This document shows, piece after piece, positions 1-3,655 of a DNA stretch of 3,655 nucleotides. Both the position numbers and the translations under genes were made by a program. Each line of letters starts with the position of its first letter. Position 1 is the stretch's first letter. The stretch is from NCBI GenBank assembly GCA_000004695.1, contig CH709179.1, positions 1 to 3,655 on the forward strand, written 5' to 3'. The notes below the pieces were generated by a model. The model saw nothing but the letters and a program-made list of their open reading frames with translations, had not been told where the DNA came from and did no database searches. Source of the DNA: Dictyostelium discoideum. Lineage: Eukaryota.

Positions 1-222
1 TCTGTGTACAAGGTAGGCAAGAACACACAAATTTCACAGGTTTGTCATTCAAAGGTAAGACTTTATCAATTCCGTAGAGCGCCTTTCGGAATGAAGAACA
101 GCCCTGCGCTACTTTAACAGATGGATACAATCGATCATAAAAGAGTGCGAGGACTTCCGCGAGAGCATACGTAGGACGACATCATTATCTTCTCAAAGAC
201 GTGAGATGACCATATCACTCAC
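1..222 (+). pseudogene. pol: Reverse transcriptase palm segment (pol), disrupted.
   Basis: Frame 1 reads ...LYQFRRAPFGMKNSPALL*QMDTI..., the conserved PFG-x-KNAPA-x-Q box, with TAA at 115-117 sitting at the conserved Gln/Arg position. Frame 3 reads A-Y-V at 165-173. After one extra nucleotide at about 174, frame 1 reads D-D-I-I-I-F-S-K-T at 175-201. Together these form a YVDD box split by a 1-nt frameshift. TGA at 202-204 is then followed in frame by DDHITHVNTVLQKL. Confidence 0.75.
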
Positions 223-1416
223 GTGAACACTGTTCTACAGAAATTAAGAAAAGAGAGAGTTTACTTAGCCCTCAACAAAGCTGAACTGTTCAAAGATAGT
301 GTCAAGTTTTTTGGTCATGTGATATCAAGAGATGGTTTCAAACCAGTTTTAGATAAGGTGGAAGCAATTAACAACCTACCAATTCCCACTACTGTCACAG
401 AAATAAGATCTTTTCTTGGAAGTTGTAACTACTTGAGGAGGCTCATTCCAAACTATTCCGAACTCACAGCCAGATTAGCAGCTCTCACAGGTATTAGAAC
501 AACGAGAATCACAATCACAGACGAGATAAAAGAAGACATCAAACGGTTAAAGCAAGCAATCACTTCAGCCCCGGTTATAGCTAAACCCGACTTCACCAAA
601 TCATTTGATGTTTACATCGATGCAAGTGACATAGGTACAGGTTGCGTTATCATGCAAGATGATGGTAATGGTAACATTAGGCCGATTCTTTACGATAGTT
701 GTCGATTCAACAAGTTCCTAAGAAATTACTCGACAACCGATAGAGAATTTCTAGCACTCATCAATGTATTGGATAGACACGGTTACATGTTGAAAGATAA
801 GAAGTTCAGGTTGTTTACAGATCACTTAAACTTGACATATTACGAGGAATTGAAAGAACCAACCAAGAGAATCATTAGGTATTTAGACAAAGCGAGTGAA
901 TATAAATTCGAGGTAATTCACGTCAGAGGAGAGGATAACAACATAGCAGATATGTTGAGTAGAGATGGAACATTCGATAGCACATGGGAACCAGAATTCA
1001 TTGATAAAATCAACAAGGAATACGTTGAATTTGAAACGAAAGAATCTGAGTGGTTTGATACTTTCAAGTCAAGACAGGATGTCGTCAACGTAGATGGGTT
1101 ATGGTATCTCATAGACGCCAAAACAGGATCCAAGAGATTACTACTGGTAGATAAAGAAACAATTAATCTAATATTAGAAGAAGCTCATTCAACAATTTAC
1201 TCTGGTCACTCAAGTAAGAATAAGATGGTTGATAAACTCAGATATAATTACTACTTTCCAAAGTTTATCAATCAAATAAAACGATTCGCCGAATCGTGTA
1301 CTGAGTGCCAGAAGAACAGAATCGAAAGAGCCAAGAGTGGTTTTCTTAATCCACTCCCGATACCATCTAGACCATGGATTGACATATCAATGGATTTCCT
1401 TAATCTTCCAAAATAA
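223..1416 (+). CDS. pol: pol polyprotein fragment: RT thumb and connection, RNase H, integrase N-terminal HHCC zinc finger and first catalytic Asp. This is the interior of a polyprotein, and the GTG 'start' at 223 is an ORF-caller artefact.
   Basis: The RT thumb is KAELFKDSVKFFGHVISRDG...RSFLGSCNYLRRLIP. The RNase H motifs are YIDASDIGTGCV (D), TTDREFLAL (E), LFTDHLNL (D) and DNNIADMLSRD (D). The pre-integrase region is DGLWYLID...LILEEAHS. The zinc finger is H(1186)-x6-H...C-x2-C (AESCTECQ), ending at 1308. The first DDE Asp is in ISMDF at 1393-1395. The frame ends at TAA 1414-1416, after which the same frame still reads NSGKDSVMVIVDYQK, which is integrase-like. Confidence 0.85.
   Translation: MNTVLQKLRKERVYLALNKAELFKDSVKFFGHVISRDGFKPVLDKVEAINNLPIPTTVTEIRSFLGSCNYLRRLIPNYSELTARLAALTGIRTTRITITDEIKEDIKRLKQAITSAPVIAKPDFTKSFDVYIDASDIGTGCVIMQDDGNGNIRPILYDSCRFNKFLRNYSTTDREFLALINVLDRHGYMLKDKKFRLFTDHLNLTYYEELKEPTKRIIRYLDKASEYKFEVIHVRGEDNNIADMLSRDGTFDSTWEPEFIDKINKEYVEFETKESEWFDTFKSRQDVVNVDGLWYLIDAKTGSKRLLLVDKETINLILEEAHSTIYSGHSSKNKMVDKLRYNYYFPKFINQIKRFAESCTECQKNRIERAKSGFLNPLPIPSRPWIDISMDFLNLPK
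559..966 (+). other. RNase H domain of pol (sub-feature of the CDS above).
   Basis: All four catalytic D/E/D/D motifs are present at canonical spacing: DASD, TDRE, TDH and NIADMLSRD. Confidence 0.8.
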
Positions 1417-1460: not shown

Positions 1461-2279
1461 ATGTGTAAGATAATTCCTTGCACCAAAGAATTAAAGGCCG
1501 ACGAAGCTGCTAAGTTGTTCTGGGACAACATAGTTTGTAACTTTGGTCTACCAGCAACCATAGTATCAGATAGGGATAAGCTAATCACCTCTGATTTATG
1601 GAACAACTTGATGGAAATTTCCGGAGTAAAACTAAAGATGACAGCCCCACGTCGACCACAAGCCGATGGTCAAACCGAAAGGATGAATAGAAACATTGTT
1701 AATCTATTATCAAAGATGACCTCTAACAGATTAGATTGGGATATAGAGATTAAATCAATCGAATTCGCAATCAACAACACCGTCAATTCATCGACTGGTC
1801 ATACTCCATTTTCAATACTACTTGGTTTCCATCCGAGAACACCATTGAACATCAACCCAGATTACAACCTGCCATATCTCGAAGCAGCCGAATATTATAG
1901 ACAAGCAGCTAGAGACAACATGTTGGAAGCACAAATAACAATGGCGTTACAATACAACAAGGATAGAGACGATTTCAAATACGAGGTTGGTGATCTTGTT
2001 TTGGTAAAGAGAGAGAAGGTCAACATCGCGATGATAAATGATAAGGATCAAAGTAAAGTCTTACCGAACTATTGCGGCCCATTTAAGATTGTCTCCAAGA
2101 AGAGTGAACTCAACTACTCAATAAGGATCCAGAACCATAAGGGTGGTCACAGAACTGTTCATGTCAGTGATATGAAACCGTTCATAGAAGATGATCGTAG
2201 AATATTCAAGAGTAGTGATTCAAATTATAAACCTTTGGAAGAAGAAATCGATAAGAAGTGGATAAAAGAAATAGAATGA
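1461..2279 (+). CDS. pol: Integrase catalytic core remainder and C-terminal GPF/GPY module. It continues the pol reading after a -1 frameshift near 1456-1465.
   Basis: Frame 3 reads IIPCTKELKADEAAKLFWDNIVCNFGLPATIVSDRD. The second catalytic Asp is at 1569-1571, then ...APRRPQADGQTERMN with the catalytic Glu at 1677-1679. The spacing is D-58-D-35-E. The downstream C-terminal signature is ...LPNYCGPFKIVSKK...HRTVHVSDMKPF (GPF / HVS.LKP). The frame ends at TGA 2277-2279. Confidence 0.85.
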   Translation: MCKIIPCTKELKADEAAKLFWDNIVCNFGLPATIVSDRDKLITSDLWNNLMEISGVKLKMTAPRRPQADGQTERMNRNIVNLLSKMTSNRLDWDIEIKSIEFAINNTVNSSTGHTPFSILLGFHPRTPLNINPDYNLPYLEAAEYYRQAARDNMLEAQITMALQYNKDRDDFKYEVGDLVLVKREKVNIAMINDKDQSKVLPNYCGPFKIVSKKSELNYSIRIQNHKGGHRTVHVSDMKPFIEDDRRIFKSSDSNYKPLEEEIDKKWIKEIE

Positions 2280-2455
2280 TTGGCAGAGGTTCAAGAATAG
2301 AATACAGAGTTAGATACATAGGTAAAACTGAAGATCACGATATGTGGTTACCATTATTCGCACTTGAAAAATGTGGAAAATTCATCAAAGCATACGAAGA
2401 TTTAAAAATATCACCAGTAGCTCCACAACCCTTTACCACTCAATTACGAAATTAG
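2261..2455 (+). CDS. C-terminal chromodomain of integrase (chromovirus targeting domain), reached through a frameshift from the integrase frame.
   Basis: Frame 2 reads DKRNRMIGRGSRIEYRVRYIGKTEDHDMWLPLFALEKCGKFIKAYEDL. Compare the chromodomain consensus ILDKR..G..EYLVKWKG...TWEP..L.C..LI..Y. The preceding integrase frame ends ...EEEIDKKWIKEIE*, which overlaps the same motif, so the shift lies within 2250-2285. Confidence 0.7.
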   Translation, partial: DKRNRMIGRGSRIEYRVRYIGKTEDHDMWLPLFALEKCGKFIKAYEDLKISPVAPQPFTTQLRN

Positions 2456-2472
2456 TTGGTTTGTAAAACTTA

Positions 2473-2473
<1 letters not shown>

Positions 2474-2517
<44 letters not shown>
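2474..2517 (+). repeat. Poly(A) homopolymer, 44 nt.
   Basis: Counted directly. It begins 18 nt after the pol/chromodomain stop codon. Confidence 0.95.
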
Positions 2518-2521
<4 letters not shown>

Positions 2522-2567
2522 CATATATAGTATAATCGGTAAGTAGCAAATCAAATTAAAAACAAAC

Positions 2568-2588
2568 AAAAAAAAAAAAAAAAAAAAA
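2568..2588 (+). repeat. Poly(A) homopolymer, 21 nt.
   Basis: Counted directly. Confidence 0.95.
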
Positions 2589-2596
2589 TATATAAA
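2589..2596 (+). promoter_or_regulatory. TATATAAA, a TATA-box-like motif about 220 bp upstream of the ORF ATG at 2816.
   Basis: The motif is seen in the sequence. AT-rich context makes chance occurrence likely, and the distance to the ATG is long. Confidence 0.15.
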
Positions 2597-2671
2597 CAAC
2601 AAAATATCTTCAAGTACAAATTTCAAATTATTATCCATTCAAGACAAATTCATCCGAGCGTCGATCACCTA

Positions 2672-2726
2672 CCAAATTGCAGCAAAATTGCGACAAAATT
2701 ACGACCAAATTGTGACTAAATCGTAA
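2672..2726 (+). repeat. Degenerate 11-bp tandem repeat, 5 copies, consensus about CAAAATTGCGA.
   Basis: The units are ccaaattgcag, caaaattgcga, caaaattacga, ccaaattgtga and ctaaatcgtaa. They are in phase at an 11-bp period, about one helical turn. Confidence 0.7.
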
Positions 2727-2746
2727 AAAAAAAAAAAAAAAAAAAA
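2725..2746 (+). repeat. Poly(A) homopolymer, 22 nt.
   Basis: Counted directly. Confidence 0.95.
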
Positions 2747-2779
2747 TAAAATAAAATAAAATAAAATAAAATTAAAATT
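2743..2779 (+). repeat. (AAAAT)n pentanucleotide microsatellite, about 6 units, degenerating at the 3' end.
   Basis: T residues recur every 5 nt at 2747, 2752, 2757, 2762, 2767 and 2772. Confidence 0.85.
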
Positions 2780-2815
2780 ATTTTATTTTCTTTCAATTGC
2801 GTGGCACAATCAACT

Positions 2816-3229
2816 ATGGCCGAAAATCTAAATCAAGAGTACAATCTACAAGCTCAATTCGACTACGACGAAAGTAGAAGAAGTTTATTCATCTTTCCAG
2901 AAGATATGGACAGAATAGATAATATCAACCGTGAACTCAACACACTTCAAATAGATTCAATAGAAATGTATGAGAGGGCCATTAAACTCGCAGTGACAGA
3001 ACTCGATTATCTTGACCTCATTTACAGAAGAAATTTCAATGCAGCATGCGTGAAATGTTCATTATGTCGTAAATACACAGCCCACAAGTTGGTATGTAGT
3101 AAATGTGCAAGGGCAATCCAAAGAAGAAGAGATGCAGCAATCGATGAAAGGAAAATGGAACGTCAAAAATTCTTGATCCGAAAGGAATCAACGGAACGAA
3201 AAGCAAAAAAAAGCAGTCATCAGAAGTAA
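2816..3229 (+). CDS. Hypothetical small protein, 137 aa from the first ATG. It has an acidic coiled N-terminal half, a Cys cluster C-x2-C-x2-C-x9-C-x2-C (zinc-ribbon/treble-clef-like) and a Lys/Arg-rich C-terminal tail. The ORF track's start at 2801 is a GTG artefact.
   Basis: The frame is open from 2765, with the first ATG at 2816 (caactATGg, A at -3, G at +4) and the stop TAA at 3227-3229. The Cys motif is CVKCSLCRKYTAHKLVCSKC. The tail is RRRDAAIDERKMERQKFLIRKESTERKAKKSSHQK. Codon usage, with frequent C-ending codons, resembles the pol ORF more than the surrounding AT-rich DNA. There is no recognisable homology by eye. Confidence 0.45.
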   Translation: MAENLNQEYNLQAQFDYDESRRSLFIFPEDMDRIDNINRELNTLQIDSIEMYERAIKLAVTELDYLDLIYRRNFNAACVKCSLCRKYTAHKLVCSKCARAIQRRRDAAIDERKMERQKFLIRKESTERKAKKSSHQK

Positions 3230-3270
3230 GGAGGCTACCGCAGGTAATAGAACTATGATATACCGTGGGT

Positions 3271-3386
<116 letters not shown>

Positions 3387-3390
3387 TAAG

Positions 3391-3423
<33 letters not shown>
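3391..3423 (+). repeat. Poly(A) homopolymer, 33 nt.
   Basis: Counted directly. Confidence 0.95.
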
Positions 3424-3425
<2 letters not shown>

Positions 3426-3435
3426 AAAGATGTTT

Positions 3436-3454
3436 AAAAAAAAAAAGGAGGGGA
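3436..3454 (+). promoter_or_regulatory. Polypurine-tract-like sequence A11-GGAGGGGA. It is a candidate PPT preceding a 3' LTR that would begin TG at 3458.
   Basis: A purine-only 19-mer ending in a G-run is followed by TA-TGTAAAG... In LTR retroelements the PPT abuts an LTR that starts with TG (established knowledge). No second LTR copy is in the window to confirm it. Confidence 0.3.
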
Positions 3455-3456
3455 TA

Positions 3457-3480
3457 TGTAAAGTTTTTTGATACTTTACA
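3457..3480. repeat. Palindrome/hairpin with 8-bp arms TGTAAAGT / ACTTTACA and an 8-nt spacer.
   Basis: The arms are perfect reverse complements, read directly from the sequence. It lies immediately after the PPT-like tract. Confidence 0.6.
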
Positions 3481-3655
3481 AAGTTCGGGTTGGGAAATCG
3501 AAATTAAAATTTAAAAAATTATTAAAATTAAAATAAAACCTTTTTTCGTTTTCCAAAAAATTAAGTTTTTCACTTTGAATCCAAATACCAATATTAGTAT
3601 TATTTATTAATTGGAATTCCTAAATATCTATTCAATTTACCCATCTTCATCAATA

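Follow-up and report, generated by a model that had tools for sequence, protein, structure and literature searches.

A probable third gene downstream of pol in Skipper-type chromoviruses of the Dictyostelium discoideum complex

Among the retrotransposons of the model amoeba Dictyostelium discoideum, Skipper is one of three that serve as references, and it has been used in work on centromere targeting, tRNA-gene targeting, RNA interference (RNAi) and the control of DNA methylation. The account that Leng et al. gave in 1998 reportedly lists three open reading frames (ORFs), gag, pro and pol. Published descriptions assign two ORFs to Skipper, gag and pro-RT-RNH-IN-CHD (protease, reverse transcriptase, RNase H, integrase, chromodomain; PMC5006619 Fig. 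1 legend; PMC5633606), and none of the accessible accounts of Skipper-1 and Dd_Skipper-2, that of Spaller et al. (2016, PMC5006619) among them, mentions a gene in the interval from pol to the 3' LTR. Here we describe an additional ORF, ORF3, in a stretch of 3,655 nucleotides of D. discoideum AX4 (contig CH709179.1 of assembly GCA_000004695.1, forward strand; hereafter the window), a whole unplaced contig recognisable by its sequence as the 3' half of a degenerate Skipper-group chromovirus. We think it fairly probable that Skipper-type chromoviruses of the D. discoideum species complex possess ORF3 as a genuine third gene, located between the pol stop and the polypurine tract (PPT)/3' long terminal repeat (LTR).

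The element in the window shares with Dd_Skipper-2 (formerly DGLT-P, GenBank AF474004) and Skipper-1 the host D. discoideum AX4, the Ty3/gypsy domain order and a putative chromodomain at the C-terminus of integrase. Dd_Skipper-2 has a consensus of 6,178 bp, an LTR of 208 bp and eight copies, none of them intact (PMC5006619 Table 1). With its LTR of ~208 bp and its decay, as in the degenerate D. discoideum copies, the element in the window matches Dd_Skipper-2. Skipper-2 characteristically lies 8-23 bp downstream of a tRNA gene; no tRNA gene is present in the window, whose contig has no 5' element end and stops within the 3' LTR, and the relatives of the window element insert 13 bp downstream of a tRNA gene, with a polypyrimidine stretch replacing the primer-binding site (PBS).

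A further ORF in the interval from pol to the 3' LTR is not in itself new; such ORFs are best documented in plant Ty3/gypsy and copia elements and in insect errantiviruses, and are mostly env-like or of unknown function (PMC7264820). ORF3 resembles those of the aORF-3S class (plant Athila and Bagy2, Drosophila gypsy; Vicient and Casacuberta 2020, PMC7264820) in position, strand and presence in most copies, and likewise in combining conservation at the protein level with no database similarity and an unknown function. It differs from the env-like members in its length of 130-190 aa, its apparent solubility, its Cys4 motif and its basic helix. Because no hydrophobic segment is visible by eye and the predicted model consists of helices and one hairpin, ORF3 is an additional ORF but not an env-like one. 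It also differs in its amoebozoan host and in belonging to a chromovirus, a word absent from PMC7264820 (the absence of a word, not a survey). In addition, PMC10309623 describes CERV, a protein encoded by the Caenorhabditis elegans LTR retrotransposon Cer1 and needed for export of its genomic RNA. CERV is, like retroviral accessory proteins of the Rev and Tat type, encoded by the element beside GAG and POL and acts on the element's own RNA in the nucleus, and it may be a functional analogue of ORF3. The analogy is functional speculation; neither sequence nor fold similarity was detected, and a search for splice signals that would connect a leader with ORF3 was negative. The phenomenon of additional ORFs is thus known, and what appears new is the protein family and its occurrence in a chromovirus of an amoebozoan model organism. 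No mention of a gene between pol and the 3' LTR of Skipper was found in the accessible literature or in text searches, which did not cover the original 1998 and 2001 accounts, where an earlier mention is possible.

Three full-length Skipper-2-type elements with both LTRs (loci L006, L009 and L010), all in Dictyostelium cf. discoideum, and a Skipper-1 copy with both LTRs (L005, ~3155-9570) allow the position of ORF3 to be fixed in the window. The relevant features are as follows.

2816..3229, + strand: ORF3, 137 aa and a TAA stop, with the N-terminal motif LFIFPEDMDRIDNIN, DYLD, C78xxC81-x12-C94xxC97 and a basic helix.
3205..3212, + strand: A8 run, the site of a frameshift relative to the relatives, located by comparison with their reading frames.
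3213..3389, + strand: former C-terminal extension of ORF3 in another frame, AVIRSKEATAGNRTMIYRGL(N)38, with (AAT)38 at 3273-3386 and the stop at 3387-3389.
3436..3454, + strand: polypurine tract AAAAAAAAAAAGGAGGGGA, followed by TA in the same arrangement as in Skipper-1, L006 and L009.
3457..3655, + strand: 3' LTR, starting TGTAAAGTTTTTTGATACTTTACA, located by homology to the paired LTRs of L006, L009 and L010.

A first-pass annotation of the window had reported a 137-aa ORF on the pol strand with a Cys cluster and a basic tail, and this ORF is present at 2816-3229 of the + strand, its C-terminal 40 residues holding 15 K/R versus 6 D/E. GC content is 0.32-0.40 within ORF3 versus 0.04-0.25 in its flanks. 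Among 2000 mononucleotide shuffles of 2456-3456, 3 contained an ATG-initiated ORF of 137 aa or more, as did 12 of 2000 random sequences that matched the ORF in composition. A chance origin of the frame is unlikely, and homology decides the matter.

The PPT-like tract had been proposed as the 3' boundary of the internal region, and the same PPT/LTR junction occurs in Skipper-1 and in the elements with paired LTRs. The window reads aaaaaaaaaaaggagggga-ta-TGTAAAGTTTTTTGATACTTTACA at 3436-3480, that is, a PPT and then TA-TGTAAAG. The Skipper-1 copy has aagaaggggga-ta-TGTAATGAATATTACA (TGTAATG) at its 3' LTR, and L006 and L009 have gctggagga-ta-TGTAAAC immediately 5' of theirs, the LTRs of L006, L009 and L010 beginning TGTAAACAATACTGATACTTTAC right after gctggagga-ta. 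From LTR position 1/13 onwards, the window LTR is ~74% identical to these paired LTRs. The two LTRs match at 211/212 positions in L006 (4680-4891 and 10507-10718) and at 212/212 in L009 (2726-2937 and 8617-8828), and are 88% identical in L010; homology to the pairs of 99.5-100% identity places the LTR start at 3457, downstream of ORF3. The contig ends after 199 bp of the LTR, and ~9 bp appear to be missing judging from the LTR end of the L002 copy (...AAATTTAACA), which gives a window LTR of ~208 bp, equal to that of published Dd_Skipper-2. ORF3 therefore lies inside the element, upstream of the tract at 3436-3454, which is the PPT, and of the 3' LTR, which begins at 3457. The order of pol stop (2455 in the window), ORF3, PPT and LTR is the same in L006, L009, L010, L005 and L011.

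ORF3 is linked to pol in both the Skipper-1 and the Skipper-2 lineages. In our small sample of 12 pol 3' ends from 11 loci, ORF3 follows eight: those of the window, L005 copies a and b, L006, L009, L010, L011 and L001, the last with an ORF3 remnant fused to a truncated pol. The remaining four are L002, where it is deleted, L003, where other sequence truncates the copy, L004, a divergent Skipper-1-like copy that shows no recognisable LTRs and in which no ORF3 homologue was found downstream of pol, and L008, a D. purpureum Skipper-2. Members detected with a hidden Markov model (HMM) of the family occur only 3' of pol, L007 excepted. The expectation that the ORF is multi-copy and always linked 3' of this pol family thus agrees with all these members save the unlinked L007, and linkage together with the LTR mapping supports the earlier idea of an internal 3' accessory gene of a chromovirus between pol and PPT.

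In copy b of L005, a second D. discoideum Skipper-2 copy, pol is immediately followed by the block (85% match to window 1574-2401 and 79.5% to 2522-3413), and its ORF3 is 65-76% identical to that of the window and frameshifted. HMMER searches against 1.84 billion representative proteins returned three true relatives (phmmer E 9e-23, 7e-17 and 7e-15), namely P0186, P0187 and P0188, all of them entered as "hypothetical proteins" of Dictyostelium cf. discoideum in assemblies of recent date (GCA_0548...). In L006, L009 and L010, the interval between the chromodomain and the 3' LTR encodes P0186, its cluster-mate P0190 and P0187. A word-indexed protein search with the window ORF3 gave nothing at E <= 10; its exact sequence has no gene or protein record, and no AX4 ORF3 protein is present in the searched collection. 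The intact element of L009 lies 13 bp downstream of a tRNA-Thr(AGT) gene and has a 4-bp AAAT target-site duplication. Its 5' LTR is followed by a polypyrimidine stretch instead of a PBS, gag (3057-4283, 408 aa), an overlapping pol (4213-7779, 1,188 aa) and ORF3 (8001-8504, 167 aa), after which (AAT)n, an A run and the PPT lead to the 3' LTR. Skipper-1 carries a distant homologue of 128 aa (tblastn E 2e-7, family-HMM E 1e-44, ~30% identity) in the chromodomain-PPT interval of L005 copy a (8717-9103) and L011 (9001-9387).

The family alignment shows a motif F-D-Y-x-E-x-R-R near the N-terminus, followed by LFIFPxDMERIDxIN (LFIFPxDMxRIxxIN), of which F-I-x-P-x-D..R....N is invariant. E-P-D-Y-L-D-(M/L)-F is likewise conserved, and the core CxxC-x12-CxxC-A-R is directly followed by a basic cluster (QRRRD, RINRD, KKKRT, VKKKR, RVKRNRK) and a long charged helix. 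All four Cys residues are kept in the window, P0186, P0188, L010 and the Skipper-1 ORF3; L005 copy b lacks the first and the third, and every one of the four positions is lost in one copy or more. The window ORF3 has Cys at 78, 81, 84, 94 and 97, so the CxxCxxC-X9-CxxC pattern noted earlier is literally present, but its middle residue C84 is specific to the window copy, and the family pattern is CxxC-x12-CxxC.

Nonsynonymous (dN) and synonymous (dS) divergence was estimated by the Nei-Gojobori method, with a Fisher test for nonsynonymous deficit.

Window vs L009, ORF3: dS 0.99, dN 0.37, dN/dS 0.37.
Window vs L009, pol: dS 0.76-1.0, dN 0.03-0.06, dN/dS 0.03-0.08.
L009 vs L010, ORF3: dS 0.30, dN 0.074, dN/dS 0.24.
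L009 vs L010, pol: dS 0.033, dN 0.011, dN/dS 0.35.
Window vs L005 copy b (both dead), ORF3: dS 0.26, dN 0.12, dN/dS 0.46.
Window vs L005 copy b (both dead), integrase: dS 0.30, dN 0.11, dN/dS 0.36.

The deficit in ORF3 is significant for window versus L009 (Fisher p 1e-5) and for L009 versus L010 (p 3e-6), and each of these pairs includes an intact-looking copy; purifying selection acts on a fast-evolving ORF3 protein. As ORF3 and pol have equal dS between the window and L009, the two genes diverged together. At this equal dS the ORF3 protein has evolved 6-12 times faster than pol, a pattern typical of factors that meet host defence, as in an arms race. The values for the two dead copies reflect decay after insertion.

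The comparison of L009 (4213-8504) with L010 holds an observation of its own, the lower dS of pol (0.033 vs 0.30 in ORF3), and the L010 LTRs are 80-84% identical to the L006/L009-type LTR. This mismatch points to recombination, the 3' module of L010 (ORF3 and LTR) seemingly stemming from another sub-lineage.

The copy in the window is a shortened relic inside a dead Dd_Skipper-2 copy, and our interest is in the protein family that it reveals rather than in the copy itself. One extra base is present in the A8 run at 3205-3212; the stop at 3227-3229 comes after the frameshift, and the last ~6 residues (..KSSHQK) are out of frame. The AVIRSKEATAGNRTMIYRGL(N)38 extension in the other frame resembles the C-termini ..AVIRNKDVITGNRIMVYRGLNNN of L005 copy b and ..GVRIMQIRRVNNN of P0186/P0190. 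Closer relatives of the window ORF3 have ~150-190 aa, and Skipper-2-type proteins end in ..G.R(I/T)M.(I/Y)R(R/G)(V/L) running into poly-Asn encoded by (AAT)n. The stand-alone and Skipper-1 proteins end without poly-Asn, which makes the tail variable. As to the repeat itself, (AAT)n at window 3273-3386 codes for the poly-Asn tail of the Skipper-2 type, and Skipper-1 (L005 9200-9320) has a similar (AAT)n inside the LTR, just past its start.

Several observations weigh against ORF3 as a bona fide third gene. The window ORF3 is frameshifted and adjoins a broken pol, the L006 ORF3 has an N-terminal frameshift and that of L010 an in-frame stop. In L009, the youngest copy with its 100% identical LTRs, Gly replaces the fourth Cys (P0190; LICGIGARK); either the residue is not needed in cis or the change arose in the last reverse transcription. 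The lesions in L009, L006 and L010 indicate that not every insertion requires an intact ORF3 in cis. Moreover, the D. purpureum Skipper-2 at L008 (6970-12645 of GL871030.1) lacks ORF3 and leaves only ~85 bp between pol and LTR. This Dp_Skipper-2 is intact: over the 300 nt reported its LTRs are 100% identical, their spacing is 5,361 bp and its intact pol has 1,219 aa, so the gene is dispensable for Skipper-type transposition in general. Finally, the A/T-rich motifs that could serve as an ORF3 promoter are ubiquitous in Dictyostelium DNA. Separately, an ORF of 281 aa lies 1 kb beyond the L008 element (13599-14444).

The alternative that survives best is that ORF3 is a captured host gene, or a derivative of one, with its own promoter, and is either a passenger without a role in retrotransposition or of benefit to its host, for instance by repressing the element; we give it roughly the chance of one in several. 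It draws on P0188, an intact 136-aa member at L007 10001-10411 (D. cf. discoideum, GCA_054859205.1 JBTAPH010000042.1) that stands among ordinary host genes. Neither gag, pol nor an LTR was detectable around it within the 20-kb locus, where only low-complexity matches occurred, and P0188 has ~45 nt upstream of the ATG in common with the L006 copy. The promoter-like context, which belongs to ORF3 itself, and the existence of Dp_Skipper-2 without the gene also fit a captured gene. However, P0188 is the only stand-alone copy found, and no ORF3 homologue was found outside the D. discoideum complex among the 1.84 billion representatives. At 34-42% identity, P0188 is nearer to the Skipper-2 ORF3s than is the Skipper-1 ORF3 (28-39%), which fits an origin from an element as well as donation to one. 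The retention of ORF3 in two deeply diverged Skipper lineages, with dN/dS below 1 and the same dS as pol, speaks for element-level selection. P0188 is a candidate for either a domesticated copy or a donor gene, and as such offers a case of domestication or capture.

It is improbable that the frame is incidental and that conservation concerns a stretch of RNA or DNA acting in cis between pol and PPT, for instance in packaging, in plus-strand priming or as an antisense promoter. The 11-nt array, the A runs and (AAT)n, which are conserved non-coding features, would suit such a region, as would the small ORF3 lesions in several copies. Yet at a dS of about 1, close to saturation, the reading frame persists together with the four Cys and the N-terminal motif, and dN/dS is significantly below 1. 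Skipper-1 and Skipper-2 ORF3s also have protein motifs in common with no nucleotide-level match found between them, and the window has no match in Rfam.

The L002 copy, from another D. discoideum assembly and 92-96% identical to the window, jumps from window position 2463 to 3574, and TTTG borders the gap at either end. The junction (L002 6520-6545 vs window 2455-2470 and 3560-3580) is a 1,106-bp deletion between TTTG microhomologies and resembles an insertion with a target-site duplication. The 1,106 bp absent from L002 take in the spacer and ORF3 and reach through the PPT into the LTR, of which the first 113 bp are gone; since the lost block also holds the PPT and 113 bp of LTR, L002 represents a microhomology-mediated deletion. 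The reading of block 2464-3569 as foreign (a nested insertion or host flank, both raised in the first-pass annotation), with the LTR boundary directly after pol, would explain the TTTG pair as a 4-bp duplication but is next to impossible and was dropped once the LTR start was mapped, because the block includes the PPT and the first 113 bp of an LTR homologous to the L006, L009 and L010 pairs, ORF3 stands at the same place in five other Skipper-2-type and two Skipper-1 copies, the PPT/LTR junctions and the intact L009 element refute it, and L002, the only copy that skips the block, is a deletion.

Taking ORF3 as a gene of the element, we looked for relatives of its protein. Pfam gave nothing for the window ORF3, and for the family only scattered single-member matches below threshold (E 0.001-0.24: Spt4 zinc finger, FUR, HypA, zinc-ribbon; FUR, Spt4 and HypA at 0.003-0.09). 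The family profile had only weak Fur matches among all PDB sequences (E 0.022-0.9, not significant), the best of which pairs the second CxxC of ORF3 with the HHDHLICLDCGKV region of Fur (HHDHLICLDCG). The AlphaFold2 model from the single sequence was poor (predicted local distance difference test, pLDDT, 65), and that from a 5-sequence alignment reached pLDDT 78.8 with a predicted template modelling score (pTM) of 0.64. The latter contains helices at 29-43, 49-61 and 63-68, a beta hairpin formed by 70-77 and 87-91, and a helix at 95-135. C78 and C81 come right after the first strand, whereas C94 and C97 open helix 95-135. A knuckle combined with a helix N-terminus is the treble-clef arrangement in the standard zinc-finger classification, and the predicted secondary structure suggests that ORF3 is treble-clef-like and may bind one zinc ion. 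Treble-clef and zinc-ribbon fingers and the structural zinc site of Fur likewise have two CxxC, corresponding to the knuckle and helix N-terminus of the model; fold searches with the ORF3 model found nothing, and with no significant sequence or fold match this is resemblance, not membership.

ORF3 is distinct from the CCHC zinc knuckle (CX2CX4HX4C) in its spacing, CxxC-x12-CxxC, and has no Pfam zf-CCHC match. A duplicated gag zinc knuckle was considered and rejected, as ORF3 has no similarity to the element's own gag; comparison with its pol was also negative. The basic cluster after the second CxxC may form a nuclear-targeting or nucleic-acid-binding surface, and we infer that ORF3 is a zinc-binding, probably nuclear, nucleic-acid-binding accessory protein.

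The interval between pol and ORF3 bears on how the gene might be expressed.

2456..2815, + strand: A-rich spacer between pol and ORF3, containing two A runs (2474-2517, 2558-2588) and, immediately before the ATG, a TAAAA/T-rich stretch; L005 copy b, L006, L009 and L010 have a homologous spacer.
2674..2721, + strand: tandem array of 11-nt AAATTGCGACA-like units, 4.4 copies, followed by poly(A), located by Tandem Repeats Finder and repeat-family search.

Across the copies, ~220-360 bp of A-rich spacer separate the pol stop from the ATG. In the window, L005 copy b, L006, L009, L010 and L007, the 60-80 nt preceding the ATG are made up of a TATA-like stretch and then an oligo-dT run. This is the usual arrangement of a Dictyostelium core promoter, and it may tentatively be taken as a promoter of ORF3. 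The array has GACCAAATTGY-like units in Skipper-2-type elements, with equivalents of unit GACCAATTCGA/GACCAATTTGT in L006, L009 and L010, and Skipper-1 has a different unit, CGTACCAAAAC, four times in the same place; the unit thus differs between Skipper-1 and Skipper-2 in step with the ORF3 protein. No repeat array was found in the Dp_Skipper-2 at L008. The array could be an array of binding sites or a promoter element. Every copy that keeps the spacer has it, with 3-5 units of 11 nt and poly(A) after them (L006 ~9800-9850; L010 ~7895-7935; L005 8418-8465).

A sequence resembling a 5' splice site, GTAAGTA, occurs in the spacer of the window (2537-2545), L005 (~10835) and L010 (~7775) and is absent from L006 and L009. 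No splice acceptor joining pol or a leader to ORF3 was found in the window, where no AG lies between the T-run and the ATG. Splicing between pol and ORF3 was considered and dropped, the GTAAGT (window ~2539) being downstream of the pol stop with no acceptor.

In a possible mechanism, a promoter of its own inside the element would drive ORF3 and yield a subgenomic mRNA that is polyadenylated within the 3' LTR. The resulting protein would fold around one zinc ion, enter the nucleus through its basic cluster and act in trans as an accessory factor on the RNA or DNA of the element. Its roles might include RNA export or stabilisation, regulation via the adjacent 11-nt array, or countering silencing. 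A part in choosing integration sites is unlikely, since the gene is present in the centromere-associated Skipper-1 as well as in the tRNA-targeting Skipper-2. A bolder proposal, which we regard as rather unlikely in this specific form, makes ORF3 a small nuclear zinc regulator that reads the upstream 11-nt array and controls expression, RNA fate or escape from RNAi and heterochromatin, a Tat/Rev/CERV-like protein of a new fold family with P0188 as its host-domesticated form.

A conserved and selected third gene would mean that the published biology of Skipper is incomplete, and it affects the design of the marked Skipper constructs that have been proposed (PMC5633606). Extra ORFs of LTR retrotransposons are known mainly from plants and insects, mostly with no function assigned. 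Dictyostelium is haploid and tractable and its RNAi mutants derepress Skipper, which could make the role of such ORFs directly testable.

The remainder of the window is occupied by the decayed pol gene.

7..1416, + strand: pol, end of reverse transcriptase, RNase H and the integrase H2C2 zinc domain (Pfam RT_RNaseH 1.7e-28, Integrase_H2C2 4e-14).
1461..2279, + strand: pol, C-terminal part of the integrase core and an SH3-like domain, equal to gene DDB_G0294372 (Pfam SH3_Tf2-1 1.1e-9, rve 0.003).
2258..2455, + strand: pol, chromodomain in a shifted frame, with the pol stop at 2453-2455 (Pfam Chromo; tblastn to the Skipper-1 chromodomain region).

The Pfam domains on the + strand, RNase H, Integrase_H2C2, rve/SH3 and a sub-threshold chromodomain, follow the Ty3/gypsy order and are interrupted by a stop and a frameshift. 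The chromodomain match (E 2e-4, 21.6 bits) is under the gathering score of 25.1, and tblastn detects homology to the chromodomain of Skipper-1. The first part (7..1416) is 89% identical in aa to the pol of the intact L009 element; within it, the ORF at 223-1416 has a premature stop at its end and is 100% identical to DDB_G0294370 (hypothetical protein, partial; D. discoideum AX4). The ORF at 1461-2279 is 100% identical to DDB_G0294372 and to P0100, and 95% identical in aa to the L009 pol. These two pol fragments are the only AX4 annotations on the contig.

Several Skipper copies are flanked by arrays of ~12-nt AT-rich, TTAAATTAATTT-like units (L004 11520-11800; L005 2005-2160, 2943-3097 and 9610-9729), which might belong to a different repeat family or to centromeric DNA.

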